DNA of 64,000 nucleotides from Phoronis australis (lineage: Eukaryota > Animalia > Phoronida): NCBI GenBank assembly GCA_002633005.1, contig NMRA01000014.1, forward strand, positions 920,955 through 984,954, read 5' to 3'. The notes beneath the pieces were generated by a model. The model ran no database searches and was not told the DNA's origin. It saw only the letters and a list, made by a program, of their open reading frames with translations. Below are positions 20,871 to 53,729 of this stretch, one piece after another (position 1 is the stretch's first letter; each line of letters opens with the position of its first letter). The translations under genes were made by a program, and so were the position numbers.

Positions 20871-22168
20871 TCACACTTCTTCTACAGCGGGCAGTCGTTC
20901 ATCAGACGTGCAAGGGGATATCGACGTGTCGTATCCAGACCCAGACGTATAATACTCGCTCTTCTTTCTAACAGACATTTTACTGTCCCTTTCTACCTCC
21001 TTCATTTCCTTTCTAGCTTTATCATTCTCTTCATCCAATTCACAGTTTCTTAACATTTCATCCAATAATTCTTGCTGTCGGTCCCCTGTTGCAGGAGCAG
21101 AAATATCTGGAGATAGTTTCAGACATTCTGCGCATGTTCCAACAGTCCACAAGTACAAACTTGCTACTGCGCTACACTCGTCTTCTAACGGTTTCTGAGC
21201 CACGTGTTCTAGTATATCGAGGGCGCGAGTTGCCAGGTCAGAGTGAAGGTACTTAAACTTAAATTTGCGCACACGCTTTAGGATCCCTGCTGTTATGATC
21301 TTCTGGCACATTTCCCAGTCGTACTCGGTTTTGTCTTCGTGCTCGCCGAGAATGAGTAAAGCTGCAACCACGGCATCGTGAACTTGGTGAGACGGCTCTT
21401 CAAAGTCAGCAATCTTATTAATTTCCTCGCGGTTGATTGCCAATAAAGTCATCTTCAATTTGTCAACATGTAGCAAACTTTCCTGTGTCTTCTTCGCAGT
21501 CTCAAGCTCTTCTTTCAACCAAGTAGCAGCCCCAGATTTTTCAACATTCGTAATAATCTTGTTAAGTCGCCTGGCACTTTTGGTTTCGATTGCTTTAAGC
21601 AAAGCTGACTTTCTGTTAAGATTCACCAAGTTAAACTCTGATTCATCTATAAGATCCTTATTGCGCTGCACTCCAAGACATGACTTGTGTTTGTCAACAA
21701 ATTCGTTATAATTGCTGAGGGCGTGCTTAATTTCAGTCTCGTCCAAGTTAGTGTTGGCGTTGACCAGGTTCATCTTGAGTAGATCCAAGTCATGGTTTAG
21801 CTGCTCCGTCGTCTCATCCTTTACATCAACTATAGCCTTTGCTCTGATAAGAAGCTCGTCATCTGGAACTGCTGTGCTTCGCTTACAAGATTCTTCGTAA
21901 GCATTCAAAGCAAACTTCACTGACGTTTTGTCGGGACATGCTGACGTCTCCGCTGCATTGACAGTTTTCTTTAGAACCTCATATTTATAGTTGAGAGCTT
22001 CTAAGTTGGGTTTTCCATCGTCTGTTGTATCAATGGGAATGACGACTAGCTGTTTGGTCTTGGTTTTGTGATACCATATTAACAGTATAATACAAATTAA
22101 GAGAACAGCTGCCCCCACACCTATCCACACCCCATACTTCTTCAGGAATCGTATGACCTCTGGTTCAT
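20871..22168 (-). CDS. Gene B terminal exon: TM (YGVWIGVGAAVLLICIILLIWY) plus ~400-aa cytoplasmic tail with a dynein stalk-head-like domain
   Basis: 436-aa ORF with acceptor tttttccag|AT. Clear paralogy to 43928-45240 (e.g. EPSHQVHD..VA.LL.LGE....EYDW). Confidence 0.92.
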
Positions 22169-25100
22169 CTGGAAAAAGCATAAAGGTTTAATATCCAAAG
22201 GTTTTCGTCATCCATTTGACGTATAAATTTTGTTTTTGACTTAACAACAGTTATATGAAGCAAACGTTTTTGTATTACTATACATCACATTTTCAAGTTC
22301 ATACTCGGTTACAATAAAAAAACTTTCCCAGTAACCGTAAATTCCAAAGTCAGAAACCTGAATTCACACGGTGTCACCGCTACTGTACACGTATCGCCCC
22401 TTCGAGATCGGCTTCTGTGTTATGTGAGGCTTCGCGTCTACACAAAATCCAGGGCCGGCTTTAATCTTGTTACCCGAAATCAAACTGTAAATCGCATTTC
22501 ACATTTTCTATTCCTTTTTTCTGAACTGAAGATGGGTATCTATTATTTCGTGCTCGAGTGCAAAACGACTTACGCCCAATCCTAGTTTGCACTTAATGAC
22601 CTTGGCATTAAGGCTTAAAGTTCGAAAATACGAAATTTTGAATTTTTATTCAAAATCTCGAGGTTTCACAAGAGTCTGTAGTTAGAATATAGGGGTCAAA
22701 AGAACGAAATTTTCTCGAGTTCGCACAAAAGTAGTAACAAAAGTGTCGAAAATAACTTCATGTTCACTTAGAGTACAAATATTAGACCCCGGCACCATGG
22801 GTCTGTGTCATGAAAGCGACTTAAGACTTAAGACAAAAATTTGGTCTTACGCCTCCACTTCAAAATTGTTGAAAAAAGGTTTAGCCAAGCAACCACAAGT
22901 GTATCAAACTATTGAAATAATTTATAGAAAATATACGTGTATATTCCCATAGACTTTGCAATAATTTATCCCAAGTGAGATTTAACTATTTTTGAAAAAA
23001 TAGTGGAGTCGTGGATCGTAAGACCAGAATTCGGACTCAAAATCGCACTTTTTGATATTTTCCAATCTATTTTTGTCCAAATTCAGGATGACTGTTCTGT
23101 CATTTTTCCCGAGTACACTATATACAGTTTATATTGATGATTGCCTAATGCCAGTCTGCACTTAAGGACCGCAGTCTGACCTTGAAATTGCAGGTCATCA
23201 AGTGCGAGCCTGCATAAATCATAGCACATCCGAGGTCAGAATAACAGACGCTTATCTAAAATAAGTAGAGCGTAAAAAATCAGTAATAATTTTGAGTGCG
23301 AATTTGAATACAAATATTAGACCCCGGGTCACGGAGAACTGATTTTGTCTACAACAATGCCAGTGTCATGGAACTGATTGCAGTGGTCAGTTTCCAATGC
23401 TATATGCCATACGCTCTGCACGGATAAAACGTGTGTACGTACATCAGAGTTTTTTTAAAGTTTTGTTTCGTTTGCCTTAACTAGGGCATTTCTGGTTTTC
23501 GACGAGTGCATTATCAATTGCACAACTTTAATACGAGTGGGGAGCTTAACAAAAATGTTTAACTTGTTTGTTTGAAAGGGTGTGATGTTTGTTAGCAAAA
23601 TAATTTGTCATTGGCGACGTTTAAACGTAAAACGAAACATGTAAACTCTTTGATGAATAAATGTAGGTTATCCACATACGTAAGAATTCTACTGGTACAT
23701 GTACCAGCCAGAGCGAAGGTCGAGTTGGGACATTTCTGTTGAAATGAAAAGGAAACAGGATATCGCAGTTGTATTCCTTTGTATGTGAGATTTTCTATTT
23801 ATTCCACATATACGATGTCGTGTTGTCATGTGCTTTGGTTTACTTGTTATATGTAGTAGTATTATTATAGTTCAGTCGTACGATCAACACGGAGGAAATA
23901 TTTTTATTGTTGTTTCCATTCCAGAAGCCAAGAAACGAAAATAGTTTTAAAAAACTCAGAAATTCACCGGAGCTCTAAAACGACACAGTGCTGCACGTTC
24001 ATGCTTCAATTTTTATATTCCCGGGTGGATTGTTTTTAATTTTTCAGCGAACTTTTAATATTGTTGAGCGGGTCATTGTTTTAACTTTTACTTTCCAGAA
24101 ACAGAAAATTCTTACACATTCATTATGAAATAAAACATTACGAGTTTCGTCACAGAAAACATTGTGACTTAACGGGCAGGGATACACTTGGCATTTAATA
24201 AATAAATGTGACGTCACATAACTACAAACTAAAGCACATGGAAAAATGACATCGCCGTGATGTAAATAAGTCCATATATATATGGGATTATAGGTTACCT
24301 TACATACATAGGAATACTATTGCCATATCCTGTCTCGAATTCATTTCATTCTCAGATGACATTGCAAGGCCCGGCCAAACACTTTGGTGGGCCGTTGAGG
24401 GGAAAGTGTCGCCGTAAAATTACGCTCGTAATTACCAGCGTAAATTAAATTGCAGGAGTGTCGCCGTACAATTACGCTCGTAAATTAAATGGTGAAAAGT
24501 TTCGTCGTAAAATTACGCTCGTAATTACGAGCGTAAGTTAAATTGCAAAAGTGTTGCGGTAAAATTACGCCCGTAAATTAAATGGGGTAAATGTCGCCGT
24601 AAATTACGCTCGTAAAATACCTTAAGAACGTTCCAAATTTGAACCAATCAGTGATGACCTACTGAACATACACGACTGTTGCTGGGCAGCTCGTTCTTGC
24701 ACAATCGCTGACATTGCAGCAACGATTTGATCCGCCATGATTCAGAGTTCGTATCGTAGACATGAAACCCGCCAATAAATAAGTATTTCCATGAGCGTAC
24801 GCGATCTTTGTAAAATCCAACGTCATTGGCTAAGAGTTTAACTAAATTACGAGCGTAATTTTACGCCGTAAAGAATTAAATTACGCTCGTAATTTTACGG
24901 CGTAATTAACGGCGTAAATAACGGCGTAATGTACACAATTACGCTCGTATTTTTCCGGCGACACTTTCCCCTCAACGGCCCATCATAAAACCCAGCATAG
25001 GGCAAGGCAAGTATGATGATTGAGGAGAGCTTGGCAGACCGGATGCCGACTGGGGGGTGGACAAGGTCCAGAACATTTATTACTTAATCTATATAGCTGG

Positions 25101-28100
25101 AATATAAATGGCTTGGCACGAAAATTTATAAACTATGATTTTAAACGTTAAGTTGTTTGATGTCATACAATCGCAAGACACGTACGTGGGCTAATACTAT
25201 CTAAGATTTTGATATTGAGAGTTATGAACCTCTCACTATAACTAGGAAAAGCATGAGAAAAGGAATACCGGAGAATTATCTTGTTTGGTCGAAGTCTAAC
25301 ATATCTATTTCCAGAAGCTGAATCGAGGTCAGATGGCATTATTGTCATAAGTATTTTAATGCAAAGGTACTTTTTACAGGGCTTAGTATATCTCCAAAGG
25401 AACCCAGCATTTATTCAGACAAGGAGCCCAGCATTCATTCAGACGACTTTTAGTGTGCGAATGTGTTAAGTCAGACAGTTGCTTTCATTGTTGTGATCTG
25501 TCGGTATTTGGTGATATCAATGTCACCTCCTCAGCAGAATTGGAAAGCTGCAGTTGAGCAAGGCTGTGGACTTTGATGTTGTTCCAGTTAAGGTCTACAA
25601 ATATTCTACACCAGCGTTGAAGAGTTGGTGTGTGTACAGATTAGTGGATTAGAGCTGTGATAGTTCCTTTGTTATAAACGCTTCCAAAAAAGAAGACCCA
25701 CAGAGTTACAACACGTAAAGTGGTCTGTTGGCCGGTTTTGAAAGAAGTTTTCTCCCACGCACCAACGACTGTGTAGTTTCATGTGTGACCTGTAGTTTCC
25801 AAGGAATAATTGAACAAATCAGTCACGGAAAGCTGCTGCTGGTTTAGGTATACTTGTTAGGAATAGAAGTAGCTGTGATTGGGCAGCATTGAATAATGTG
25901 TCATTACCTGAAGTTGTGATAGACTGGTAATAATTAGTACGTCATTAGCTGAAGCTGTGATTGGCCAGTAATAAGATGTGAGATTTTTTCGATTCATAAT
26001 GTCGTTATTTGATCATTCATTCACCATATTTCATCACGAGAGGAAAATTCAAAAGTGCCGATAAGTTTGTTGCAAAACATACATATTGGCGTACAATCTT
26101 GAAACTTGAGTTCGTGTTTGGCGGGTTTTGCAACTGAAATTAAAAGTCACGTTTGGCATGAGATCGCTCAGCGTGAAGTCACCGTCAAAATGGCATCGGA
26201 TTTCACGACCTGGTATTTGTCAAATCAGTTTCAGCATGAAATATTTCACGTATGCTGTAGTCCGTAGGCCCCGGAAGTCGCCTTCAGTTGCCTGGCAAAT
26301 ACGTTCTTCTATCTACATGCTTTCCTCGTTTTTTGATGCCTTTAACACGACGTCATTCACAAACTTACCTCCAGCCAGTAGAGCGCATGGAGTGGAGCAG
26401 ACTATATTTTCCTGCGAGTCGCCAAGGCAATGTTTGCCACCGTGGGCTGGTTTCGGGTTGGTGCATGTTCTCTCACGCGTCTTCACCCCTGGACCACACG
26501 TCTTTGAGCAGGTGCTATAGTTTCCCCAAGAACTCCATCCACCTTGAACTAGAAGAAAGAGACTTATTGAGAGAAGCAGCCCCTCTCGTGCAAGATATGT
26601 TTGTTAGTTGGTTTATCAGGGCTTCACTTTAGCTATAGACCGTCGTCACGCAGTCGCCATTTTAGTAGTGAGCCTCTTTTTGGTTTATAAAAACAATACA
26701 TTTGACAAACGAATATAACGAGGCACGCGAAAAAAGTCACACTTTACGCTGTATTTAAGCTCAAAATGCATTGTTTTTAAAACCTAAAATGAGGCTCACT
26801 TTTAAAATGGCGACCGCGTGAATACGGTGTATTGTAGGTAGTTCACAAGTTAACTCAGTTTTATGAAATTGGCTAATAGGGCCTACAGCATGGTAGGTTC
26901 TGTTCTGTATCACTGGAAATTGATGAAATGGTGCAGCTTTTATGTTAGTTTTAATACTTTCAAAAACAAAATCCATCTGATATCAGCTATATTGGGACAG
27001 GGCTTTTTTCTCAATCAAACCCACTTTACAAACCAGATTCAGAGGTTGGCTGTCCACCAGGAACAAGCCATTTAGTTTAAGAAATGGCTCAGAGATGTGC
27101 TTGCATGGCTTTTGAATAAGAATTTGAAGAACTTTGCTAGAATGATGTGTACCGGCATTTTATTCTGCAGGAGCACGGTGCAGGCTTAAAATGAATCGGG
27201 GCGCACGACGGAACCAATCGTGCTTTTTTAGCATTACAATTTCTGAATACTATTGGTGTCTAACTCACTTGGACAAGGTGGCTTCTGGCACAATTGGGTG
27301 ACATTAGAGGATCCCTGGCAGTACTTGCCGCCAAGTGTCGGCGCTGGATCATTACACTGACGCCGCTTAGATAGTTTTCCAGTGCCGCATTGCCCAACGC
27401 AGCTCGATTCTGTCCATTCTCCCCAATTACCCGGTTCTGAAATCGACATCATTAGCCAATTATCGACTACTAGAGCTAGTCATTAAGTCCAGTAGCCGAT
27501 GTCAGTAAACACAGAGGCCCGAAATTAATACAGTTTCCAAATAAAAACCCTTTGCGACGGAGCCAGTCCCAGGTAAGCCTATGAAAAGGAACACCAAGGA
27601 TTATTCCAACGTTGAATATGTGTACATATGTAACGTGATATCCTGTACTTCAAGTTTGAACCGTTAAACGTGACAAGTGCCACAATTAGTGAACGGGTAT
27701 TCTCACGTGAAAAAGACCGTCTTTAAAGTTTTACATTTTCGCGCTTTCTAAAGATGCAGGATCACTATCGTAAGCAAAACCCAACGACGTGGCCGGGCTG
27801 TATTAGTGCTGGCATACGCTATGACAGCACTGGAAACTCATTTCAGGGATGAATGAACTTCAAAGAAACTTGACATTGCTGCCTTAATCCTGTCGTTACG
27901 ATCCTAACTGCAGTTGCGAAAAAGAAACCCAGACAGAATATGAATTACCGTAAAGTCCCCTATGCAAAGTCATGACATAATGTTGGAGAATAATGTCATG
28001 GCTTTATATTCGGGATCGGTGTATTTTAAGTGTTCCGAAAAAATGTTTTATTTCAATTTGATCAAGTCAAGAGGCGTCGCATTTTAATTTTGCACACGCA

Positions 28101-31100
28101 ATGTATTCCTAGTGACACCTATGGGCAATATGTTGCATATACCAACAGTAATGGCACGGAAAAACAAGTTGTCGCTACTTCGGCTTCGTTCTCTTATCCT
28201 GGTTATCGCTTTAGTGTGCGTTGCTCGACTACCGTTCCCCCTCTTCCTTCACCAATGTCCAACACAGCTAATTAGTGTGGGAATTTGAGCATTTGTTCAA
28301 ATGTTGTGGTTCAATGAATTTGGCTCGTCTCAAAGTATGCTTAGTGACCCCTATTCACTACAATAGACGATGAAATAGTATACGTAACCACATGGAACAT
28401 GGGAGCCTTTATTTACTGTTTTCCATAAAATTTGGAATAATAAAGTCCAGTTGTGCCGTTGGACCATGTGTTGATTTCTGATAGAGGTCGCGAGTGTCAT
28501 GTTCTGTCTGTTCGTCTCCGAATAAAGGTATAAGCTACTTAATCGAGCGCTGAAGCTTCACCAAACATGAAATGAATATCCAGTCCATGGCGTTATAGTG
28601 TGTTCTGGATTGTAATCGCACCTTAGATGCGTGGTCAACGGTGACGAAGTACCGTACTGTGAATATGTTCCAGTAAAATAAATCGTCGTATTATCACGTG
28701 GTTTATTTGTTTCACTGTCACGTCTCTGCCGGTGGAATAGACCTTGTGTGAATCAAATGTTTGATGCTAATTACTGGTTTTATAAAGCATAAAAGTACCA
28801 AATATATATCGTTTGTAGCTTGCAAGTAACTGGAGCTCAGAACACGGTCAGAATTCGAGTGAATCGGCCGTGGATTAATTTTCTTCGGGGCAGAAATGGA
28901 AACGCTCTACCACTGAGCAAAATGCTCGCCAGCACATTGAATTTGACTTCATCATGTTTCTGAAGAAAGATGGTCCAAAGTGAAGTGTTATTGCAATAAT
29001 CCTTGACACATCTCTCCGAGCTTTTAAAGTTTTGGAGGCAGTAACCACGTTAAATTTATCTTGAGATGTCGGTTAATTTTTCATAACAGAATTATAAGAG
29101 TCATTAACTAATAGACAGGCAGCCCAGGGCACTTAGCATAGATAGATGAACGAGCTACCAACATCTGACCACCGGAGCACTTAGTGTGCAAACCAGTAGG
29201 CCTATGTACAGAAATGGATGGCCGCCGGTGTCTTGCCGTGTGGTCCCTGGGGACCTTACAACATGGGCGGCGCAGCACTGGAATAAGTGGGAAGCTGTAG
29301 CCCCCAGCCCTCTATGGTGCGCCTCCCATGTACAAGGGGACCAAAAATGAGCTAAATTAGATATTCGAGATACCGCCAAACCTGATTTAAAGCGAACAAC
29401 CGTGCCGTACGAAACACAGAATGATCCATGGCAGACAAATTGCATTGTAGAAAGAGTCCGCCTGTGAACCCAGATATGACCCCAAAAAATGAGCTAGCTG
29501 ATACATCCGAGGAACCACAAAAAGTAATTCCATACGATTCTTAACATCCTAGTATTCCACTGAGCACTAAATGGCCTTTGACACTCAAAATACTCTGGAC
29601 GGTGCCAGCTTGAAACTCCCTTGGACACTCGCGTCACACTGAGTTACGAATAGTCGATGACAGAAAGTAACCATTTTGGAAAACACTTGATAAAACTCAA
29701 ACTTTGAGATACCAGAGAATCTCAAAAAGCCAGCCTGTTTCGGTGATGCTTAAGACGGCAACTAGTGAGGTTTAATGGGGTATCAAAACTGCTAGCTGGA
29801 AAGATACTTCAACAACAAAGCATGACCCCTAAATTTGTGCTATATCGCGGAACAACTTCCAGTGAGATCTCTCATTCCATTGGCAGCTAATCAATGTTTT
29901 TAAAGAAATGAAACAACCGTATTTTAATGTTAAATGTCTGTGAAGCGTTACACTTGTGTATATACGCACGTTTGCAGAGAGGAATTTTGTCACCGTCACA
30001 CGTGTGCAAATCAATAAGTCCGTTCACTTCCATGGGACACACCAACGTGTCTCCCACGCGTCTTGTTCGGCAATAGTTTTCGGATCCTTCAACGCTTAGT
30101 AATTCATGTCTGGTCATTGTAATTCTGTTCCATGTGACACAATTTCCATTCATTGACCAACTCCCAGTGTATCCTTTTCCCAAGGGATCTTCCTCGAATC
30201 GACATTCGGGGCCCTTTACAGTCGCTGAGAAGACAAGTAAATTTATAGTTATACATAACAGAAGTTTTGTCCATCGAGAACGTTTAAGTTGATTTCAGTG
30301 GAGATTAACACAAACTTTCCGCGAAAACACTTGAAATTGAAACTGAAATTGGGAGTAATTCGATGCTTGAGCAACCAATTGGGATTTACTAGGGTTAGAC
30401 AGTCATGCATAAAACCATAATGTCCTCGAAAACAAAGTTTGTACAAAAGAAAAATAACTTTAATTTCAAGTACAAAGATTAGACCCCAAATTCTAATAGA
30501 ACAGAAACTGATCTTAAACTTGCAATTGGCCCTGTTTAGCTGGCTATATCAACCAATATCGAATTAGGTGTGCACTTTCATCAAATCCATAAAATCGGTT
30601 TTGAACAGGAATTTTCCTTAACACGAAAGGGCTTGATTTTTGCAAACATGGAGAAGATGTAAACTTCCAACCGGTCAAATGAAAGCGCTCTGACTGACCG
30701 AGCGACAGAAACCGATTAAAAAAAAGGGATCCTGCCTACGACGGCATTGGAATCATAGACAAAAATGCTCAATACATCATTGACAGCGTACGAAGACCAC
30801 GACAACGACGCCGACGATGTAGCCAACACCGATGTCTATGGCAGCAACACTAACAATAGCCTTGACAAAGACGACGACGTCACCTTCAAAACTGATGACA
30901 ACGCCGAAGTATCACGAAGCGGCTACCATTAAAGAGGGTTTGCAAAGCGACACGAACGTGAATTATAACGCATATGTGCTGATTCACGTTACAATAAGAA
31001 AAAGATTTCGCAACAGCTATGCTTACGTGAACGTGAAAGTAAGCGTGAACTGTAACTGGACACCCTGAGCTCAGTTATTTTAATAACTGAGCTCAGGGTG

Positions 31101-34100
31101 ACCAGTTATTGTAGGACCAGTACATGTCAGCTATTTTACAAGAAACTCAAGTCATTCTGCCAATGCAATTTCTTTTACGTAAAAGTCTTTTCCACGAACT
31201 CCTGCGAGAAATGGTGAACTCTTACAATGCGAAATATATTTGCAGTTTAAAATAAATATATGCATGTAAATTAAGCATGTAAAAATAGCAACAAAAATTT
31301 TATCTGTTAAAAATCCATTCTAGTTCGATGATATCCAGCTTCCCCCGGCAGAATAAGGGTTTTTGGAAAACGTGCTTTCTTGCAAATAAATTTAAGAATA
31401 TTTATAGACAAAAAAAATCGTGTTCATTTTATACTGAAACAAAGAAGAAAGATTGAGAACCATATCAAAATAAAAATCATTTTGATTCTTACCAAATAAG
31501 AATTAAAATGGGGCCACAGGTTTCGCGTTTAAAGCGACGCGAATCTCTCTGTATTCGCGTAAAATATTCGAACACTAACGGGATTAAATCACGGCCAACA
31601 ATGATATGTATGACGCAGTACTAAAAATGCGCTGATAATTCACGTTCACGTCGCTTGGCGAAACCTCTCTAATGACGACATTACCGACGCGAAACCACCG
31701 TCGACACTGTCGTCATAGCCATCATCGGCGAATAACCATGACACCGCCGCTGGCACAGTCAACAACGACGATAATGCTTCAAGAAACACCAATAAACAGG
31801 AACGACTAAGAAAGCCACTAATAATACTAGTGCGTCAACAACTGCGACAAAAGGTCGATCACCAAATCCAATCTGTCCACTGCTTCGCACAATTTAACTA
31901 AATCAAGACTTCTCCGTCCATTCACAGTAATGCCACGTTCCATGAGCCATTTTCGCAACTGAGGCACAGTCAATCCACCAAACTGACTCATTTTCCGACA
32001 AATAACACAAAAATAACTCTCAAATACTCGATACACAACATTCGATACAAGACCACGCTAGCCGATTTTTTGCCCCACATCCGGTGACGTCATTCATACT
32101 TCGGTACATGCGCATTAAAACTCGCAACTGAACTATTGACGACAGTGTTGACCTGAAGTTACCTCCAAAACCTATATCCCCAACACCACCAGCGCCACTG
32201 ACTATGATAGCGCCACAATTAGCCATTACCGGCAAGGCTAAAGCCGACAACACCTCAGACACAAACGCAAGTTAGGAAATTTTGGCGTATATGAAACCTC
32301 CCAACTGTATTTCATATTTTTTGTATGGTGCTCACGTCGTTAGTTTGCCCAAGTTAGCCTTGTCCGAGTAGTAGGCCAAGTTGTGACATGCTGTTGCAGT
32401 GGGAACATTGAGACGCATTCTCGTTACTGCGATCTCAATGTTCCAATGATCTTCCTCAATAGTTGAATACCACTATGTACACAGAAAAATTACTATTAAA
32501 ACTTACGTGAAACACATATGTGCTTAAGGTGCAAGTAGACACGTCCAGAGTTTTCTGGCGGAGTATACATATATTTAAGTCTTTCCTCTAATTCCACATT
32601 GAAAACAAATGCGCAGTTTCGTTTATACGAGCAGACACCCTGAATATCTTGCCATACAAAATCCGTTGCTCTTGCCTCAGCCCCGCTGTCTGTTTCCGGG
32701 TTAGCGTCTTGACATGATGCAGTCGATGTGATTTTTGCTGCGATGGACACTATGACAATCACACGGTTCTCAGAGCAGGATAGTTTTGTTGGGGGGCTAT
32801 CTCGTGGACCGCAGAGTGTTTCACGAATCACTTCTGTAACAAAGCCAGGTATGGTTACAGGCCGGGGGAGCGTATCTATCACCTATCGGCCCCGAGCTTT
32901 ATGTGTCCTGCATCCACAAAGACCCGGGACAAAAATAAACCAGGACACATAAAGGATGACCCCTGTTAACATGGGGGAAGTTAGCAGTCCGCTGCATATG
33001 TTAAAACTTGTTATAACTAAGCCATCATCACCTACGGGGTCATTCTAACGAAAGCCTTGTGCAACAAATCCATAGAAATTTGTTCTCGTCACGACGAGCC
33101 GAGTGACACTCAGTCATTTTAGATTGAATTAAATTATGTAATAGCATTGAATGCGCAAGATAAGATCGAATTATCGTGCAATCGGCATTAACTTAAGTAA
33201 ATGGAATTGAAAATACAACTTGATGTCCTCCTATATCCATCAATCTCTTAAAAGGTTAATAGTTCTCATAGGCGGATTTAGGGGAGTAAAATGTTCAAAT
33301 CATAAATGCTGCATATATTCAAAGGTAGTTTCAGACACTTGCATGAAATTACGGGCTGGTTAGTCCTGTGTCACACTGCCGCGGCAGACCTTAGCTAGCC
33401 TCAGTGCCAGCTACCAGTGAAGACTACCGTCAAAATACAGCTTGTTAGTTAGGCCTATACAGCTTTGCGCCAAGGCTACCCTTAGGCCTAACTGGTCGCT
33501 GGCCACAGCGCTCGCTCAAACGAGGTTTATTTAGAACTTGGGTACTTCTGGCGAACTGTGCAAAGTTTTTGGCTTTCAATAGAGATTTGCCCAGACTTTT
33601 TATGAGCGCACCAAGCCTAAAAGAAAACGGGGGCTGGAATTTTTGGGAATGTCTATCTCTTACTATAAGATTCACTGGGCATGTTCATGCAGAGCTATGA
33701 ATTGCAGACACTAAATTTTGGTACTTCCTGTCTTCTAGTGGAATATTGTCTCATTTTCTACTTTTTTCGGAGTTCGTTCTTCTCTGACTGAGACATACCT
33801 TTTTCCATTTCTCCAAATAGGAGGCTCCTTCGAGCACATAAGTATGACAAGTCCAATACAAAATGTTAACATTTTTATTCATTAACCCAAAATGATTCAA
33901 ACTTTTAACATAATAAGTAACTTAAAATGCACAATACTTTACAACATTTAGCATTACAAACACTATGAAAGTGGACATACATGTAACTATTACCATGGTG
34001 ACCGAATAGTGTTTTCTTACTGTAACAGAGCAAGTCTCCACTGAACATAAGAAATATGTATTTCCTCTCATCAGCATACGTTTCAGTTCAATTGCATATG

Positions 34101-37586: not shown

Positions 37587-37716
37587 AATGTGAGCAATTC
37601 TTAATCAAAAATACGGCTGCTTTAAATTTTTGTTGGTGGCGTAATACAAAGAAATACATTAGCAGTGTCAGGCAGAGAACGTATTGCCCTGCGTAAACAA
37701 GCCTCACAGAACTTAA

Positions 37717-39007: not shown

Positions 39008-42000
39008 TTAAGGGACAACCAGGCAGTAAAGTGGCAGTCTCAGATAGTGTATCCTATATTGCGTAAACATACATCACTAGACAACCAAGTTCAGTAACTG
39101 TCTCGCGGCGATAAAAATCTAGCCAAAATCACGCCCTTTCATTGAAAATACAAGGTGATATCTCGCGAGATCTTGCTTTTCTCGCGTCGTTACTGAACTC
39201 CACTCAGGTATCGCATGCAGCTGTTTTTAATGCAGTTTTTTGGTAATGAAATGATAAAAATACGATTGTGAACTGCAAAAATAGATCGTAAACGTGAAAT
39301 ACATGGTTTCAACAGTAAGTAACAGGTCGTTTGATTACTGCAGACAAGCGACCTAATATTCATGTTGCCGCCAGAGCGTTCGACATATGCGTAGCGGGTT
39401 TTTGTTTGTTTCTAGTTTGCAGCCGGTCAAGTGGAAATATTTGTATTAATTAGTAATTATTGACTCGAAGGATAATGTCGTGACATAATTTTCCTTTTAA
39501 AGAGGCCTGAAACGCGATAAACAGACTTAAATTGTGATATTGAAAGGGGTTCTCTACCACTGAAACAGAATTCAACCTGCTCACCAGGTATTTGTAGAGT
39601 TTGTCTGAAAAGATTTTTAATTTCTGTTGATATCAAAGCATTTTCTTTTAGTTTCAAAAACAAAAACGATCTGTCAACTGCTCGTCATTTTTGTCCCACA
39701 AGGCAAAGCACGTCTCCCTATTTCTATGGCAAGATATAGATGTAGCATATTTCCCTCATATGGAAAATCTGACCTTTGACCTCAAATGACTTCAAGCAAC
39801 TGACTGCGTGCATTTATCTGAAGTGGGAGGGAGACTAGAAACTGTGCTTCGCGCATATTTCAAAAATCGTGAATTTTGTGATTTTTTCTGGAAATTTCCT
39901 CACAGGGGAAAGTGAATTACCCTGCACTAGACGTTGCGAGATGGTACTTTCATCAGGATTTGTTCAAAAGATATTTTTGACGAGCTTTCGCGTTCCATGC
40001 TTCTTTAAATTCTTTTAAGTTTGTAGAATTGCTACCACTTTTTTAATGCGGAAGAGTAAATTTGCTTCAAAACAAAAACAAAGCTTTTTACAACTTTTGT
40101 TTAGTTTGTATAACATCAATGTTTCGAAAATATCTAAAAAGACTTTGGAGACTCTTGTGGAAAAAATACGAACCATTTTTGATGTTCCAAAGGTTTTAAA
40201 CCTTTTGTTTTAGCTCAAAGTGAAAGTCACTTTAATTGAAGGTAAAAGTAACTATGGAAAACACAAAACCGATCTTTAGGCCTATTATTATGTTTCAACG
40301 TGCCCAAGATAGAAATAAACGTCATGGATGAAGCTACAGCCTAGAATTACTGGATCAGTACGAGTTTCTGGTTCATCTTCTCTTATTCTTTAGAGCATAC
40401 CTTTGCAAAGCCGGATAACCGCTGTGCATCCCTGCCTTCCAGCTCTGTGCTTCATGTGCATCGGTGCGTCGTTACGTTGGCATGACCATCGCCTTCACTA
40501 AATTGGCATTCTGTGTAAATGACGTCATCGCTTACGTCGCGCAATTGATGACGCATTAAGCGATACCTTATTGGATGCGTGGATGTTTCCAACACTACTA
40601 CATGCCCGTCATTAGTATGCTAACATCAAAATTTCATAGGGGTACATAACAGTTTTCACTGGAATTTGCCTATCAGAACACACGTCAATGGACTCGTCAC
40701 TCTTTCTTCACTCTGTCGAAAACTGCATGCAAAAAATGAAAAGTTTTTGAGTCATTTCACATCACAAGCCCTACACGTGAACACAGAAACTTTATTCTCC
40801 TTTGTATTTTTGACCCTCTCACTCCTACTAGAAAGCAAAATAGGCTTAGAAAAAGGGGGTAAAAACACAAAATCGGCACCTTTTCAGCCCAAAACCACCA
40901 CTTCTCTGCCGATGCACGACATAAGCCAACATTAGATTCTGAAAGCAAATTTCCTACAGATTCCAAAAATGTGGCCCAAAAGTATTGTCGACCAACAAGT
41001 TTATTTTTGCAATTCTGGCTTCTTTGAGGGTTCGATTTCTCAGTCGCTACCTAGCAATGCACAAATGCAACAGGGGACCGCCATCTTGAAGAAGGGACTG
41101 CAAATTGGACGCGGCCGCAGCCTAATGTTTCAGTGACACCATGTGAAAGGATCCGCATAGGCCAAATGTAGAAATTCTAGTAAAGTGTCAATTTATGTAT
41201 CAGTGTGGACTACTCAACGATACGTACGGTTTCGTACCCTGTTCAAGTTGGATTGACTACTCGACGGTACAAGTATTAATATAATTTAAATATTCAATGT
41301 AGGGGCAGTTGTTTAAGAAATGCTTTGTTAAAGAAAATACAACGTTCCATCTTCAGTTAACAACCTCGAATTGATACTTTGTGCAAGAACTGACTGCCTC
41401 TGAGAGACCATCGTATATCTGCAGACATGTCGCCTTGTTTACTTTGTACTGCATGCGTTCCATACTTTTTAACTAACCCGGCTCGGTTTTTATGTATAGC
41501 CTGCCTTCAATAAAACAACCCCTTCCAGAACTGTAGTGCTTTCTATCACATAACATGCTGTACCACGGCATGAGAATAACCACGTCCACACATGTCCATG
41601 ACATCGAAAGCTAGGCTACGGATCTAGGCCTAATTTTTTTACTCAAAATCAACTCGAAAATATATTTGGCATTTCCACTTCCAATTCTCCTTCAATAACA
41701 ATTTAAGATATGGATTACGCAAGCCATTCTGCAGTTCAAATTTGGACTTGATGGCCCCTAGATTAGAGTCACAAACTCGAGTAAAAACTCGAGATTTCGA
41801 GTTCAGCTTCGATCTGAAAGCTTTAATACTGGGGTCATAAAGTGCAAAATAGGATTATCCAGTTATTCACGTACTCCATTAGGTAATCGAGAACAGAATA
41901 CTAGACGCTTATCTCGAATTCACACCAAAGTAGAACGGAAAATGTCAAACATAATTTCGAGTCGATTTCGAATAAAAAGGCTTCATCCCGGTTCGTGAAC

Positions 42001-42009
42001 TTATCCATC

Positions 42010-43927: not shown

Positions 43928-45240
43928 TTATTTTTCTGGGACAGTGGACAGTTGCGGTCTGGACGCTTCTTTTGCTTCAGGAGAATCGCACTCGGAAGAT
44001 GTCCCAGTCAAATAGAAGTCTCTTCCACTACTTGGATCTCTCTTGATACTTCTACTTGATTTCTCTGCTGCTCTTAATTCTTTACGTGCGCGTTCATTCT
44101 CTTCGTCTATTGCCATCTGGTGTGTAATAGAACTGAGGAGCTCCTCTTGTCGTTCTCCAATAGCTGGCCATGGCTCTGTGAAAGATAATTTAATGGCCTC
44201 TTCGCATGCACCCAACGTCCACACGTAAAGGCACACCGCTGCCGACGACTCTGCTTCAAGTGCAGACTGAGATACGTGCTCTAGAATTTCTATTGCTCTG
44301 GCGGCAATGTCTGGGTGCAGATATCTAAATTTGAATTGCAGCAACCGCTCTTGAAACCCATCGCTCATGATAGCTTGGCATGCAGACCAGTCGTATTCTG
44401 TTGTGGTTTCACTCTCACCCAAGAGAAGCAACACTGCCACCATAACATCATGTACTTGATGGGACGGTTCGTCATCTTCTGCAATCTTTTTGATTTCTTC
44501 TGTATCTATATCTAGAAGCTCTGTTTGCAATTTATCGACGCGCTGAATGCTCTTCTGGACATTTTTGGCTACTTCCAGTTCTTTCTGGAGCCATCTCGAA
44601 GCCCCTGACCTTTCCACGTTAACAACAACTTTGGCGATGTGCTTAATGTTTCTACTCTCTATTGCTTTCAATAGAGCAGCCTTTCTGTTGCTTGCAAACA
44701 GGACGAATTCAGACTCTTGTACTAATTCCTTATTTAACTGGAAACCCTTTTCGGCATGTCTCTCAACGAATGCTTTGTAAAGCTCTAGCGACTTCGTGAT
44801 TTCTTCTTCGTCCATCGCATGGTTGGCGTTGGTTACGTTCAATTTCAGCAAATCGTGATCCTGAATGAGTTGGTCGGTCGCTTCTTCTCGAGTGTCAATA
44901 ATCTCCTTGGCTCGCGTCATCAATTTTTCGTCCATTTTGATCTGTGTACTGCGCTGGCACGCGTCCTCGTACATAGACATAGCATAACGCATTGTCGGTT
45001 TGTCTGGATATTTGGAACATTCTGCGGCTGTAACACACTTCCTTAAAACTTCTTGCTTGTAGTGTATTGATTCTACGGAAGCTTTTTTTGCCATTTCCTC
45101 TGAAGTAGCTATACGAATACGCTGCCTATTTTTGCAGTAGCACACTAAACCAATAACAATGATGATAACTAGTGCAGCTCCCACAACACCTACCCATACA
45201 CCGTAGCGTTGGAAGAAATCGGAGATTTTCCATTCCGTCA
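43928..45240 (-). CDS. Gene C terminal exon: TM (YGVWVGVVGAALVIIIVIGLVCYC) plus cytoplasmic tail with a dynein stalk-head-like domain
   Basis: 437-aa ORF with acceptor tcatttttcag|TG. Paralogous to 20871-22168. Confidence 0.92.
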
Positions 45241-48200: not shown

Positions 48201-51200
48201 GATCCACACAGTGTCGGGCGAAAACAACACGCTTCCTGGTAATGATTTCCTAAGCCTCCTTTTGGGGAAAATACGATTTTTTTACTATCACTTCAGAATC
48301 AGGAATATTGCCTACGGGCGTGCTCAACAAGTAGTGGTCTTCAAGTTTGCCAAAAATTTTATCATTCTCATTCTGGTCAATCCTATCGCATGGTCTTTGA
48401 CTTCAGTTTCACATTTTAATTGTCTGAGTCGCATGATGCTTCGGTGCCTTTCCATGAAAATGCTTTATATTTTTGTTGGACAATTTAATTGAAAATTCTA
48501 CCCCCCCCGCGTGAATAGTTGATAGTATGTTCATTTTTGAATTCTAGATGATGCATCTTTCGTATACTTCTGTGATATCTTTCTCGTGCTGCGCCTCCTG
48601 AACTTCCCATCGGTGTCCCCAAAACGTCACGTGATCCCCCTGCCTAAAACGCTAGCCTTACGCTCAGGACTATCAAGCTTTCATATCTCACCAGCTTTAG
48701 CCTACGTGGTGAGGAATTAACAGCCATTGGCAGTGGCGGATTTAGGGGGGGGGCAGGGGGGGCCCTGCCCCCCCTAAAATTCTTCCTGATTCCATTTAGC
48801 AGTTCGGGGATGTGAATGTCTGAAGGCAAAATCCTGGCTAATGCTCTGCCCTGGCCCCCTTAATTCAAAATCCTGAATCCGCCCCTGACTGCCATCACAC
48901 CTCTTCCCAACATTCGTACCGTCTGTAGTAGCGGCTAGAATGTCTTTACAAGAACCAGGTGTACAGGGTGTAGCCTCTGTCTTAGAGCCTGGACAGTCTT
49001 TGCCTCCGTATTTTGGAATCGGATCACTACACACTCTGTTGCGCTTGCGTATGCCGAAGTCACAGCTGGCACTGCACTTGCTCCAAGCTGTCCACAGTCC
49101 CCAGCCTCCATCCCCTGCAACATAACCAAAGTGTCAGTACAACAACTTACAACAAAATCTGCTGTTTGTGGATTTTGGTAAACAAAAAGTTATTTCCGGG
49201 ATCCGGAGTTGGAGTGAAAATTACAGAAAACCACCAACTCCAACAAAATGGGAGTTTATTGCTTTTCGATTCCTTTCTTCTTACGATTAAATATTAATGT
49301 GGATTGTACTTTAAAATACAACCTTACTACCATGCGAAAGAGGTTCGTTGCTATGTTATCGTATGATAACGGGTGCGACTTATTTTGGTCAAAATACCAA
49401 GCATCAAGGACAGAGGGCTATGGCCTACCCGGACACTTATCTTTAACACCGCCATTTCAGGGATTTTATAGACGATGTATGGAATCAATCTCTACTGTTG
49501 ACCCTAGCTCAGGGAATCCTCGCTGGTTACCTGAGTGCCTGGCCAGCACACTGGTTACCGACCACCTAGCTAGCGGCACGCAGGGAACCAGCGAATAGCG
49601 TATACTACGTAAGCCAACTCTGCGTCGCCAACCGACTAGAGCGAGTAGGGAATCAAGGACCCTACCGCCATGGCCACAATGAAAGAGACATGACCAGACT
49701 TGCTCTGCGGAATTAAGAAATCACCGATCCTTCTGGGAAGAAGGTTTAGTGAAATGACCAGACAAGCGGAAGAACAGTAGCGGTTGTGGACGATATCTAT
49801 ATGTTTGTGTGTGTGTGTGTGTGTGTGTGCGTGCGTTCGTGGTTGTGCGTATAAATATAGATGTACTTATTCATATATATTGATACATATGCGTGCGTTT
49901 TGTGCAATAGGCCCAGCCCTACGTGACCTTTGCACATCCGAACGGTTCAAGTATCGGCCCGCCTGCAATCTTTTTATTAGTTTTGGTCTGTTTGTTATAC
50001 CCAAACACTGTGCAGTTGTATAAATGCATTTGTAATAAAGCATATTATTCACAGGTAACCGTTTTCTGATTGATTTGTTGTCGTTTTTACTTCACCAATT
50101 GACGGTAGAGCGGCGGTGTATTGCCTTCAGCGTTACACGTGATTTCGTTGCTTAGTTACCGAAACAGTAAAAATCTCGTACTCGATCTGGACAATCACCA
50201 AAATAACTTACTTGGACAAGTAACGTTCGTGTTACAACTTTCTTCCTGTGTGTTACCTCCAGGGCATGTTCTTCCACCAAGAGTCGTCGCAGGACTGTCA
50301 CAAGCCCTGTTCTGTACGCGGCGGCCTTGACCACAGGTGACGCTACATGTCGACATTTTAGACCAAGAACCCCACTTTCCATCAACTACAACGGTATTGA
50401 AATCGTAGTGTTATCTGGAGTAGTCGAGGGTAGCAGTCACTTACAGGGTTACCAGGTTTCGCAAGAACCACTGGCTGAAGAACGGCTGGAGTCTCATCAT
50501 CGTTTATGAAGAGTGTGTGGAGTTCAGTGGTGTGGTATATAAGCCACAGGTGTTTCTGATGGGAAAAGCGCACTGGTGAAGATTAGAGGGTTTTGGCTGG
50601 AATTTAGAGGCGCCGTCATGGACTGTTTCCATCTCTTGTCTGGTAAAAAGTTTTATTGTTGGTGACAAGGACAAAGTGAATGTTCCCCGTTCCTGGTAAT
50701 AACCTATTAAAAAAGTTATTGTTGCCTAAGCCGCGTAGCGATCTACGGTGACTAGCCTAAGGTCAGTGCCCTAGGAGCGTTATCACAGAAGCATCACATA
50801 CTTGCTACAGATAATCATTATACATTCAGTAGATATTCGTTTATTCAAAATCGTGAAATTTTTTATTGCATTTTGCTCCCGATGTCATCATTAATATGCA
50901 CAAACCTTCACATTCTGGCGGCGCTGTACATTTAGTTAACTTAGTTATTCCTTTGTCCAGTCGAGGGCACACCATTATTCCGTTGCTTGTGCTGGTACGA
51001 CAATAGTTGTTGGCGGTATTCAACACCTGAGGGCTTTCCCCGCGTGGATCTCGATTGGTAAGAACGTCTGCTATGGAAACCGTCTTCCAATCTTCACATG
51101 GACCCTCTTCAGTCAATGCATGAGTTCCCAAATAACCCACAGCGTGAACGTCGCCCTTATACACGCACTCGGGTCCTGGCTCAGTCTCTGTGGATACAAC

Positions 51201-51961
51201 GTGTGGCATTCAGAAACGATTTCTAAGCAAAACTGCGTCGGCCAAACTTCACCAGAAGTAAATACGGAAAATGACTTGCACACAGAATTGAATGAAAACA
51301 AACAAACCTGATACACAAATGTACTTGATCTGAAGATATGCTATTTTTGTGTAGTTTGATTCCGTGGCGTCGAGCATCCTCTGTTCCATTTCGGCGATTT
51401 CGTTAAGCTTATAGGAGCAGCTACTTCTAAAGCTGCATTTTTTCTGAACGGTCGTCCAGAAGATTTTGGGTGAAACTTTAGTGCCCGCAACGCCACAGGT
51501 CCGGGACACCATTATGTAAGTCTGTGTTATCGCGACAACCTTGCTACCATGGCAAGACAGTTCGGCTGTTTCATCGCCACAGATATCTATAGTTGACACG
51601 TCTGCAAATGGCATGCAACTAAAGCGTCTGTCTGCTTAGAGAGAAGAAACGTCTCAGTGAAATTCATTACTTATATTAAAAGATTAGGAACAACAGAAAA
51701 AAGATAGAACAAGAAGAGGGCTAAACAAGAGAGTTTGGGTAGAGGTGGATTTAGGGGGCACCAAAGGACCAGAACCCCTAAAATTCTCCCAATATTCATG
51801 AGAGTTACAACCTGCAGATGGACAAGGAGTTTTCATTTCAGTATCGTATCAACAAGTCTTTGATATTCCAAGTTACAGAGTGACGGTGCCGTATTTCGTG
51901 GTTGGGGCCCTAGTTTTGTTCCTGCAATAACACCAGTTTGGGTTTGATAGCAAGATACGCA

Positions 51962-52042
<81 letters not shown>

Positions 52043-53729
52043 TTTGAAATATGCGCTAAGGAAACACTCTGTAGCTGTTAATCTCCCTCACACTTTCGAT
52101 AAATAAGCGCATGCGCTCAGTCATTCGGCAAACAGCTGACTGACAAGATGGATATTAATACGGCAGATTATCACATGTTATGGCATTCCGAATCGAATGG
52201 CAGACTCAGAGGGGGGCCAAGTGGGCCATGCCCCCCCCAAAAAAAAAACACTCCTAGATTCCATTTGGCAGTTCGGAGGTGCGAATGTTTGACTGGCAAA
52301 ATCCTGGCTAATACACTTCCCTGCCCCCTCACCAACTAAAAATCCTGGATCCACCCCTGGAATCTGAAGCTGACAGCACAGTATGACGCAAGCCAGTGAA
52401 GCAAGTGATTTCCTAAAAATAATTCCAGGTGCATTCTAGAATACATTGGTATACTGCGATACCTTTATAACTAATTTTAAACGCTTTTAATCTGGCTGCT
52501 GCTTGAAGACGCCATTGTTTTGTTTACTTCAAAGGTCACATTTTCCACACAACGGAAATGTGCTACGTCTATGTCTTGCCACACCAAATAAGAAACATGC
52601 TTTACGCAAGCTGGCTCGTGGTCATTTCCATTAATTTCGAGTCCATTATGTGTTACATATCGTATTTCCGAAGGTGCAACTATGAATTCTAATTACCGGT
52701 TGGGACTACGTAGGCACTTATTACATCGCCTGGACGTTTACGACCGGCTTTTTTGTTTGGGGATTTGGAACAGGGATGGATGTCAGTGATTACTGCTGCC
52801 TGTAGGGTCACGGAGGCAACATTCTTTCCCGCCTATAGACACTGCGCTGGAGTAAGAAACCTAAATCCATCATTTAAAATTTACCTTTTTCATTACTTCA
52901 AGGACAAAAATCAGTTAACGACAACTGCAGTTGTATAACCTCGAATGTGTAACCTGCCTGAGCAACGGTATGGTGGGGCTTGACTAGTTGTCTACACCAG
53001 CCCTTATCAGAGAGTGACCTTAAGTGAAATTTGAACGGGAAGAGTGCATACTGACAATTTTTCTTTTTGGAGACCGCCTCTTTATCTGCAAAACAGCTCA
53101 AAGCATCGTGAAAATTGTCAGATGTCAAGAGAAGAGCAGGATGGACCTTCATTTCTTCATTTGTGTGTACCGGTATTGCTACGAAAGTGACAACTTCTTT
53201 AGGACGGATGCGACTCCCAGGTGCTGTCTTCTAGTGGCAATTTTAGTTTTTACGTTTCGCCTCCATATCTCCGAAGTTCCTTGACGGATTTTCATGAAAT
53301 TTATGAAAGTGTATCTATTATGGAGACGATGACGCCTTTCTGGTTTCGTATCAGTTCGACGTGCTATGTGCCATCTAGTGGCTATTTTGTTATATTAATA
53401 ATCACACCTATAGGCATACCCATTGCACTACAGTACTGGGAGCGCTCTTGTTACAGAAACTTGAACTGTCAGTGAACCGTTTGTACGTAGTTTTGTACAC
53501 TAAAGAAAGCACCCTTTCCCATAAAAGTGGTCGTGATAATAACTACTCTCAGTGTCCGTGTACATTTCTTTTACGAAAGCACCCCATGCGAATTTCAGCA
53601 ATGATGGTGGAAATCTCGAACGCGCAGTGGCATTGTGGCACTGTTTGGGCATTCAAATATAAGTCTTACCAGGCCTATACTTGGTGGCTGCTATCGTCAA
53701 GTCTACCATAAGAACGAGGAAAAGCCCTC
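43928..53729 (-). CDS. Gene C (spliced): receptor with signal peptide, SUEL-like, kringle-like, 2x TSP1, TM, helical repeats and dynein-MTBD-like domain; ~770 aa; start unresolved
   Basis: Exons 53670-53729, 51308-51601, 50906-51187, 50212-50385, 48920-49114 and 43928-45240 join in frame (phase 1). Confidence 0.85.
46067..46749. mobile_element. ~680-bp near-perfect foldback element with 8-bp TSD (P/hAT-type)
   Basis: Arms CACAGGCGTCCTCAGC... and ...GCTGAGGACGCCTGTG, ~335 bp each with a ~12-nt spacer. Flanks TCTGGACG and TATGGACG (7/8 match). Confidence 0.9.
46857..47014. mobile_element. GGCGGAT-family MITE
   Basis: AGGGCGGATCCAGG...CTAAATCCACCACTG; inverted relative of 48731-48887. Confidence 0.75.
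47950..48135. repeat. Two-copy ~90-bp tandem repeat
   Basis: ATGACGTCAT...CTATTCT...GGTCCAAATTGCGTCAT occurs twice. Confidence 0.6.
48731..48887. mobile_element. GGCGGAT-family MITE
   Basis: CAGTGGCGGATTTAGG...AATCCGCCCCTG termini; similar copy at ~52198-52359. Confidence 0.8.
48920..49114 (-). CDS. Gene C TSP1 domain exon 2 (DGGWGLWTAWSKCSASCDFGIRKRNRVCSDPIPKYGGKDCPG...)
   Basis: WxxWxxW.CS..C..G..RxRxC signature. Boundaries gttgcag|GG and GACG|gtacga; 195 bp. Confidence 0.92.
49805..49830. repeat. (GT)n microsatellite
   Basis: Seen directly. Confidence 0.9.
50212..50385 (-). CDS. Gene C TSP1 domain exon 1 (DGKWGSWSKMSTCSVTCGQGRRVQNRACDSPATTLGGRTCPG...CP)
   Basis: Canonical CSVTCG motif. 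Boundaries gttgtag|TT and CCAA|gtaagt; 174 bp. The ORF track shows a different frame here. Confidence 0.93.
50906..51187 (-). CDS. Gene C divergent kringle-like exon
   Basis: GPECVY...GYLG...T.EG.CEDW...NYCRT....VCP.....C..PPEC. Boundaries tccacag|AG and GAAG|gtttgt; 282 bp. Confidence 0.85.
51308..51601 (-). CDS. Gene C divergent SUEL-like domain exon
   Basis: IC.DE...LSC....V.I.....C......VQKKCS.R.SC......AYLQIKYICV. Boundaries tttgcag|AC and TCAG|gtttgt; 294 bp. Confidence 0.85.
51966..52038. repeat. (CA)n microsatellite
   Basis: Seen directly. Confidence 0.97.
52198..52359. mobile_element. GGCGGAT-family MITE (diverged)
   Basis: Shares GGCAAAATCCTGGCTAAT..CT.CCCTG.CCCC..AAAATCCTG.ATCC.CCCCTG with 48731-48887. 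Confidence 0.7.
53670..53729 (-). CDS. Gene C signal-peptide exon (xGLFLVLMVDLTIAA-TKYRP)
   Basis: Strong acceptor ttcttttacag|GA and donor CCTG|gtaaga; 60 bp, phase 1-1. TKY after the predicted cleavage site, as in gene A. Confidence 0.75.

Follow-up and report, generated by a model that had tools for sequence, protein, structure and literature searches.

What a fold usually seen as part of the dynein motor is doing at the inner end of cell-surface receptors, and where it came from, is the question raised by a 64-kb stretch of the Phoronis australis contig NMRA01000014.1 (hereafter the window, in whose positions all coordinates are given). Two of its genes, B and C, had been read from the letters alone as receptors (SUEL, kringle, two TSP1 repeats and a transmembrane (TM) helix) whose cytoplasmic tails hold a domain like the microtubule-binding domain (MTBD) of the dynein heavy chain; in this original prediction the domain was a motor-derived graft without characterised precedent, possibly coupling an extracellular ligand to microtubules or to a new partner. 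Our data agree with the fold, and suggest another donor and another binding partner. With a probability of about 60%, as judged from sequence, the tails of B and C would be pseudo-MTBDs, that is, docking sites for a non-tubulin, probably basic, cytoplasmic partner, and their donor would be a motor-less module of invertebrate proteins.

Splicing and expression of genes B and C are borne out by RNA. Both tail peptides were found at the positions previously given for them, on the minus strand and each within a single long open reading frame (ORF) of the six-frame translation (20874-22187 in gene B, 43931-45265 in gene C). RNA runs X1-X4 bear the same species label; gene C was mapped with four of them and gene B with three, and about one-fifth of each raw run was sampled for junction read counts. 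GT-AG junctions were seen by X1 and X2 reads at five of six introns in gene B and five of six in gene C. The joint between the second TSP1 exon and the exon for TM helix and tail is spanned in gene C (45240-48920) by 75 (X1) and 79 (X2) reads at even depth, and in gene B (22168-26369) by 41 and 33 reads, with a further 33 and 35 in a second row that differs by one letter and is probably an allele. The ectodomain exons are therefore joined to the terminal exon, as predicted. The other joints of gene C (reads in X1 and X2) are 49113-50211 (78, 75), 50385-50906 (70, 42), 51187-51308 (124, 101) and 51601-53670 (49, 24); those of gene B are 26548-27269 (116, 135), 27436-29970 (109, 84), 30224-32507 (100, 72) and 32833-36355 (91, 63). 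A minor alternative joint of gene B, 32833-34021, has three reads in X1, CT..AC ends and repeat-rich surroundings.

The first introns were located from loose read ends, which match window 56554-56583 exactly in gene C and 40403 in gene B; they put the first exons at 56553 and 40401, respectively. Run X3 had zero depth over the tail exons of both genes, as had the contigs of run X4 over that of gene C; X4 was unused. The resulting open-reading models comprise 779 (C) and 781 (B) amino acids, and in both genes one exon encodes the TM helix together with the entire tail of about 400 residues. An artefactual exon fusion is ruled out by the RNA joints, and pseudogene status by the open frames, expression and conservation. 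Gene C begins outside the range originally proposed, 20871..53729, with its ATG at 56574.

From their sequences, B and C are likely single-pass receptors, predicted to carry a lectin-like domain, a kringle, two TSP1 repeats and one membrane helix. All four TSP1 exons lie above the Pfam PF00090 cut-off. For the kringle, Pfam matches only the copy of gene A, a tandem paralogue in the same window (E 1.3e-7, below cut-off); the kringle-like exons of A, B and C show the six-cysteine pattern, and a profile built from the three matches HGF at E 2.9e-14, plus many kringles including that of ROR1. No Pfam lectin match was obtained for the exon-3 domains; their three-gene profile has a single PDB match, the latrophilin lectin domain, over its full length at a weak E of 0.005, and a SUEL-like lectin is the likely assignment. 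The proposed architecture is supported in its TSP1 pair, kringle, predicted TM helix and tail, and the SUEL domain is matched weakly. Each protein has one strong hydrophobic segment by hydropathy, and signal peptides were predicted by eye and hydropathy (1.65 in B; below the 1.6 threshold in C).

Taken singly, the tails reveal little. The Pfam MT scan of the window's own tail sequences gave no match, phmmer against the PDB returned no dynein, only phosphodiesterase noise at E of at least 0.24, and word-indexed homologue searches with single sequences gave nothing at E 0.001. A two-tail profile, searched against 1.84 billion representatives, retrieved 195 proteins at E <=0.001, of which the best 150 were listed, and 101 of these (at most 600 amino acids long) were aligned with both tails. 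This family profile, tails included, found the yeast dynein MTBD in the PDB at E 1.3e-10 with the whole domain covered; its PDB rows at E <=0.001 are 24 dyneins and the mouse MTBD construct 6rzb, and in a 5.8-billion set it found three dynein heavy chains at E 2e-7 to 1.4e-6. The profile check put forward with the original prediction thus fails for the tails alone against Pfam MT and succeeds for their family against PDB MTBDs, and the sequence link from tail to dynein is transitive because the tails alone give no Pfam MT match.

AlphaFold2 models of the C tail and the B domain were confident (predicted local distance difference test 95.2 and 96.6, respectively); since the inputs were family alignments, the models reflect the family fold. 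The six-helix MTBD fold, with antiparallel entry and exit helices, is present in the predicted model. With the B domain model, Foldseek gave template-modelling scores of 0.81-0.82 to dynein (0.82 to 3err) at E 1e-3 to 2.5e-3, with no row below its 0.001 line. The VIA comparison of the same model gave Z 16.5 against 5ayh, with a root-mean-square deviation (rmsd) of 2.0 Å over 134 aligned residues; 13 chains reached Z of at least 8, and the best row without an MTBD fold Z 5.7. Across the dynein MTBDs (Pfam PF12777, MT centre; 5AYH, 3ERR, 6RZB, 6KJN/6KJO, 8I3J), which share the predicted six-helix fold, the B domain model matches at Z 13-16.5 and rmsd 2.0-3.5 Å with the core motif kept, and with only 12-16% identity in the structural matches. 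In a structure search independent of Foldseek, dynein MTBDs held ranks 1-5 among 48,161 for the C tail model, and in the ESM Atlas the matches were mollusc-dominated hypothetical clusters at 0.89-0.92, besides one cluster (0.81) with Pfam MT in 54% of its members. In this respect the original prediction was right: by family profile and by fold the likeness greatly exceeds chance, the predicted fold of the last tail domain is that of the dynein MTBD, and the two are homologous.

The motor itself is missing. No AAA+ ring was found in the two RNA-supported models, and the long coiled-coil stalk is absent from the AlphaFold2 model, where short flanking helices and helical bundles take its place; matches to stalk structures are tight over the MTBD alone and reach rmsd 5.8-9.4 Å when extended. 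Unlike dynein, the receptors are attached to a membrane and present an acidic face. Ahead of the MTBD fold the tail is predicted to be a helical spacer; its membrane-proximal bundles in C gave only generic helical structure matches (Z <=8.6) and no Atlas match, and no family was assigned to them. Six-frame profile scans of the window found TSP1 and MTBD-like domains in B and C only. Between these two paralogues the MTBD-fold domain is the best-conserved block, with 57% identity, against 52% in the hairpin that precedes it, 48% in the proximal bundles and 30-45% in the ectodomain exons, and third codon positions are saturated (41% identical).

By sequence, the closest kin of the tails are a motor-less invertebrate module and not dyneins. 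The 195 invertebrate proteins that end in it are for the most part transglutaminase-like proteins of the KY/hillarin type, with other membrane proteins among them. A Pfam scan took in 105 of the 150 listed relatives: Ig-like_KY (PF23265) occurs in 39, many of them also with Transglut_core (PF01841), Pfam MT in 12 (two above cut-off) and dynein motor families in none, and others carry CLCA/VWA, EGF, CD20-like, EF-hand or CARD domains. In three KY-type relatives (P0030, P0069, P0127) a weak CARD match lies just before the module. None of the best 150 exceeds 2303 amino acids or has a Walker-A-like motif. In the 63 relatives longer than 450 amino acids, the module (envelope including a C-terminal extension) stops a median of 1 residue short of the C-terminus. 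The 20 proteins looked up include named members from Ridgeia, Owenia, Helobdella, Pinctada, Gigantopelta and Lingula, and further ones from Adineta, Apostichopus, Saccoglossus, Branchiostoma and Styela. A hydrophobic window above 1.9 was found in 13 of the 150; seven of these, plus P0053 by eye, were judged membrane proteins with the module at their end.

As in the family, the MTBD-like domain of both tails lies close to the C-terminus and comes after a helical hairpin. Profiles made without window rows score the MTBD-like domain at 83 and 74 bits and the hairpin at about 32 (C) and 27 (B) bits; the family-only hairpin profile gives three dyneins at most 0.4 bits. Identity of the tails is 33-39% to the nearest family members versus 12-21% to the three dyneins. 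At equal depth, the tails reach 36-82 bits (medians 59-65) with thirty family profiles of three random members each, and 17 and 10 bits with a three-dynein profile. A C-terminal P-x-RQ-x-E motif is common to both tails and 12 relatives, two of these being cluster mates. In a quick tree built on 105 domains (of the 112 that passed the coverage filter, seven rows, ids P0150 upward, were dropped) the tails fall in a group of 29 rows, 11 of them KY-type (Shimodaira-Hasegawa-like approximate likelihood ratio test 99), apart from eight other membrane carriers, and an MTBD-only tree of 65 rows sets the dyneins apart at support 100; tails and dyneins are both long branches, and three dyneins were sampled. 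On the whole, the claim of a motor-derived graft gives way to a donor that was most likely the motor-less module, itself sharing common ancestry with dynein.

A trace of how the module was acquired may lie in its exon structure. Valine stands at one fixed site just before the tryptophan of helix 3 (H3) in 43 of 48 truncated family proteins versus 5 of 103 complete ones, as expected from read-through of a phase-0 GT, so a family intron at this place is likely. Both tails are unbroken at the site, in DNA and RNA. A metagenome scan for the family intron in DNA gave 122 pattern matches, none confirmed. The unbroken tail exon would fit a retrocopied 3' end captured as last exon; plain intron loss would fit too. 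No whole-receptor orthologue was recognised: none of the best 150 relatives matches the first 55 profile positions, and none was found among proteins of 764-2180 or 1051-3000 amino acids, all of these searches being weak for animal proteins.

The surface that would meet the microtubule has changed. According to a dynein study (PMC7042235), six yeast residues form salt bridges with tubulin, namely K3117, E3122 and R3124 in H1, R3152 and R3159 in H3 and R3201 in H6, on a binding face rich in positive charge; the yeast H1 mutant K3116A/K3117A/E3122A/R3124A is described as a weak microtubule binder in another (PMC4046564). In the alignments these sites read T, K, A, S, (S or gap) and A in gene C, none of the six being kept, and R, K, A, E, (T or gap) and D in gene B, with one kept. 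At the E3122 site, 107 of the 111 full family domains and all three dyneins have E; both tails have K. The dyneins have K, E, K and K/R at four of the five tabulated sites, and one of the three keeps the R3152 site. An E-x-R/K motif in H1, present in 86 of the 111 family domains (e.g., P0004, P0041, P0017), is lost in B and C; by subgroup it occurs in 26/40 KY-type, 6/8 membrane-bound and 5/5 EF-hand-type domains. The family's H6 is less dynein-like, with D/E at the R3201 site in 53 of 111 domains and R/K one place earlier in 59.

Net charge over H1, H3 and H6 is -8 in C and -5 in B, compared with a family mean of +1.7 (standard deviation 1.8, lowest -4) and +3, +4 and +3 in the dyneins. The H1 segments of B and C are the most acidic of 163, and their new acidic motif is nearly identical in the two. 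As far as alignments can tell, the tubulin-contact residues are mostly lost or reversed in charge and the face is remodelled to acidic, which argues against the proposed coupling to microtubules; the alternative of a new partner therefore fits better. Family members with an intact H1 motif would be better microtubule-binding candidates than the B and C receptors.

The preferred explanation, a pseudo-MTBD serving a new partner, is drawn from the loss of the contact residues in a domain that is yet the best conserved, with silent sites saturated. In adhesion receptors, lectin, kringle and TSP1 modules bind cell-surface or matrix ligands, and the ectodomains of B and C would do likewise. On clustering by ligand the tails would come together, and their acidic, remodelled H1 face would draw in a cortical or signalling partner. 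The tail would be a copy of the C-terminal hairpin-plus-MTBD-like module of KY/hillarin-type proteins. A lectin-kringle receptor resembling gene A probably took it up by retrocopying, as a last exon free of introns, after which tandem duplication would have given genes B and C.

Part of the record weighs against this explanation and is best taken together with the rivals that it favours. On the ectodomain, the lectin assignment is weak, as given above. On origin, the tails served as the query that gathered the family, so that family scores are favoured, and the family intron is inferred from protein fragments, not from DNA. The MTBD-only tree leaves the tails, on their long branch, unresolved within the family (support 80), an approximately unbiased (AU) test on 36 rows does not reject tails plus dyneins as one side of a branch (p-AU 0.706), and the constrained tails-plus-dynein tree lies 4.55 log units above the free quick tree. 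These results, along with an H3-H4 stretch that is short in the tails as in dyneins, would suit a domain acquired straight from a dynein heavy-chain gene, with no part played by the KY/hillarin-type family. We consider such an origin improbable: against it are the gap in identity, the equal-depth profile scores, the hairpin and P-x-RQ-x-E motif common to tails and relatives, the lack of dynein motor families and Walker-A-like motifs in the relatives surveyed, and the free trees that separate the dyneins.

On function, the charge counts come from self-chosen segment limits on a profile alignment and are not surface electrostatics, the R3159 site falls at an alignment gap, and gene B has Arg at the K3117 site, Lys in mid-H3 and a basic run right after H3; these extra basic residues of B in and behind H3 are the chief caveat. 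Dyneins also differ in the H3 residues that they use, Dictyostelium dynein relying on alternative ones (PMC7042235). A working anchor to cortical or ciliary microtubules, through a changed and adequate interface, could be argued from these points, from the predicted fold being intact in the best-conserved part of the protein, and from the H1 motif kept by most family domains and by six of the eight other membrane carriers. Such an anchor is unlikely in our judgement, given how few contact residues remain (0/6 and 1/6), the reversal of the E3122 site to K in both tails, the negative charge on a face that would meet an acidic lattice, and a basic run of gene B that gene C does not keep. Little credence is given to the tail as a structural passenger or spacer that serves stability, trafficking or self-association and binds no particular partner through the old face. 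In gene A the lectin-like and kringle ectodomain does come with no more than a short tail, and core residues alone may explain much of the conservation; against this, B and C have the same or similar residues at the changed sites of H1 and the H1-H2 loop on the predicted face even though silent sites are saturated, which indicates selection on that surface.

The tails of B and C are not the only ones of their predicted fold on membrane proteins, and here the claim of uniqueness is narrowed. Proteins of Branchiostoma with CLCA-VWA-TM (XP_035689228, XP_078700756) have a membrane anchor and then a helical tail ending in an MTBD-like domain, and the same layout is found in mucin-like (XP_066263927) and CD20-like (XP_066272931) proteins of Branchiostoma and in an EGF-repeat-TM protein of Saccoglossus (XP_077867321). 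Their ectodomains, known from automatic annotations, differ from those of B and C, and no other lectin-kringle-TSP1 carrier of the module was found among the matches listed. Since these carriers fall outside the clade of the tails, separate fusions are likely. No paper was found on their tails. We regard as possible, and only tentatively so, that invertebrates hold an undescribed class of membrane proteins with a cytoplasmic motor-less MTBD, gained repeatedly and independently from a KY/hillarin-type module, within which B and C would be either anchors or a rewired branch; if so, keepers of the H1 motif, such as the lancelet CLCA-like proteins, would tie membrane to microtubules without an adaptor.

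Among the relatives, a close comparison is with proteins for which we use the label hillarin-type, the sources naming them 'KY-like immunoglobulin-like domain-containing protein' or 'Kyphoscoliosis peptidase'. Members such as Lingula XP_013404632, Helobdella XP_009018530 and Owenia CAH1802903 have the same C-terminal hairpin and MTBD-like module, and a subgroup shares the motif of the C-terminal extension with the tails. The receptors differ in being membrane-anchored, in lacking Transglut_core and Ig-like_KY (Pfam scan of the exon ORFs; the models leave no room for them), and in having neither the E-x-R/K motif nor the family's inferred intron. Some C-termini of the family may, we presume, already be tagged by InterPro or Gene3D. 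Two papers (PMC3718969, PMC3081291) connect hillarin with the cleavage furrow, with septins and with the axon hillock. Our literature search, which lay mostly outside subscription journals, found no paper on an MTBD-like domain in KY/hillarin-type proteins, nor one on any receptor with a dynein MTBD fold or on the architecture of B and C. The term 'MTBD-like' in PMC12366701 concerns TTLL enzymes and is unrelated.

Structures not labelled dynein also show an MTBD-like fold: 7JTK chain C 447-588 of the Chlamydomonas radial spoke (Z 12.8), taken here as RSP2, 9YA2 chain L 1207-1457 of the Toxoplasma intraconoidal microtubule (Z 9.6) and 9FQR chain Xl 1333-1491 of the bovine sperm axoneme (Z 10.9). 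These chains belong to cytoskeletal complexes rather than receptors, have 8-10% identity to the B domain, and are a likely precedent for the MTBD fold outside the motor. A search of the Toxoplasma report (PMC12819142) for 'dynein' showed its reference list only, so the likeness of 9YA2 may be unremarked there. As regards the ectodomain, the profile matches to the latrophilin lectin and the ROR1 kringle indicate the same extracellular building blocks. Latrophilins, ROR/Kremen and BAI/UNC5 are adhesion receptors with lectin, kringle or TSP1 ectodomains; none is known to us that unites the three in one single-pass chain or that ends in a tail of MTBD fold. The architecture of B and C is apparently undescribed.

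The dynein MTBD, usually seen as a motor part, would thus appear here as a mobile C-terminal module and as the inner domain of a receptor. The module is spread over annelids, molluscs, a brachiopod, a rotifer, an echinoderm, a hemichordate, lancelets and a tunicate, and it is itself the larger lead: do KY/hillarin-type proteins grip microtubules through an overlooked domain? Moreover, B and C form a natural charge-reversed pair beside family members with an intact motif, and raise the question of how a motor's track-binding fold may be turned to a new ligand. The features of the three genes are collected in Table 1.

Table 1. Positions of genes A, B and C, their exons and their domains in the window, with the evidence for each.
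Feature	Positions	Strand	Evidence
Gene C exon 1, coding part, start of predicted signal peptide	56553..56574	-	loose read ends, exact match, model
Gene C exon 2, remainder of predicted signal peptide	53670..53729	-	joint 51601-53670
Gene C exon 3, divergent SUEL/latrophilin-lectin-like domain	51308..51601	-	RNA joints, profile E 0.005 (weak)
Gene C exon 4, divergent kringle	50906..51187	-	RNA joints, profile
Gene C exon 5, TSP1 repeat	50212..50385	-	Pfam TSP_1 E 4.2e-9, RNA joints
Gene C exon 6, TSP1 repeat	48920..49114	-	Pfam TSP_1 E 8.2e-12, RNA joints
Gene C last exon, coding part: TM helix (~45134-45202) and tail	43928..45240	-	joint 45240-48920, hydropathy
Gene C tail, membrane-proximal helical bundles	44687..45088	-	AlphaFold2 model
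Gene C tail, helical hairpin common with motor-less family	44543..44686	-	family-only profile 31.9 bits
Gene C tail, predicted dynein-MTBD-fold domain, acidic H1/H3/H6 face (H1 44465-44509)	44192..44542	-	profile, AlphaFold2 model
Gene B exon 1, coding part (ATG 40461 or 40455)	40401..40461	-	loose read ends
Gene B exon 2, remainder of predicted signal peptide	36355..36411	-	joint 32833-36355
Gene B exon 3, SUEL-like domain	32507..32833	-	RNA joints, profile
Gene B exon 4, divergent kringle	29970..30224	-	RNA joints, profile
Gene B exon 5, TSP1 repeat	27269..27436	-	Pfam TSP_1 E 4.8e-5 (above cut-off), RNA joints
Gene B exon 6, TSP1 repeat	26369..26548	-	Pfam TSP_1 E 1.1e-11, RNA joints
Gene B last exon, coding part: TM helix (~22071-22133) and tail	20871..22168	-	joint 22168-26369
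Gene B tail, shared helical hairpin	21471-21614	-	family profile
Gene B tail, predicted dynein-MTBD-fold domain (H1 21393-21437)	21120..21470	-	AlphaFold2, Foldseek, VIA
Gene A, tandem paralogue	6515..14740	-	Pfam kringle E 1.3e-7, six-frame profile scans, splice model
Gene A, SUEL-like domain	14078-14431	-	
Gene A, kringle	9851-10159	-	
Gene A, TM and short tail	6515-6831	-	

Gene A is a predicted splice model, and tandem paralogues were counted within the 64-kb window, in which its first exon was not found. TSP1 and MTBD-like domains were not found in it by six-frame profile scans, and its TM exon resembles the TM exons of B and C at E 0.25 at best, which is not significant. Its short tail is acidic, a 54-base linker exon is possible at 9596-9649, and an assembly gap (8295-8421) lies inside one intron. 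An intron of gene A contains, at 11409-13678, a tandem duplication of about 1.23 kb that is 91-97% identical, with a single N at 12451, and is maybe an assembly artefact.

Repeats were also observed in the introns of the two receptor genes. The last intron of gene C holds a near-perfect palindromic element (46067-46749) with 227-base arms at 98%; reads on both strands (X1-X3) cover it, so it is likely a repeated element of the miniature inverted-repeat transposable type. In the first intron of gene B, an inverted repeat at 37783-38950, with 180-base arms 808 bases apart, is likely a small DNA transposon. By their motifs, three short ORFs may have known counterparts: the one at 42416-42911 (-) would resemble a decayed Gypsy-type integrase, that at 55074-55376 (+) the C-terminus of a non-long-terminal-repeat retroelement, and that at 31830-32057 (-) a SAP-like domain. 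Finally, a 32-base minisatellite with about seven copies in register occupies 60233-60578.

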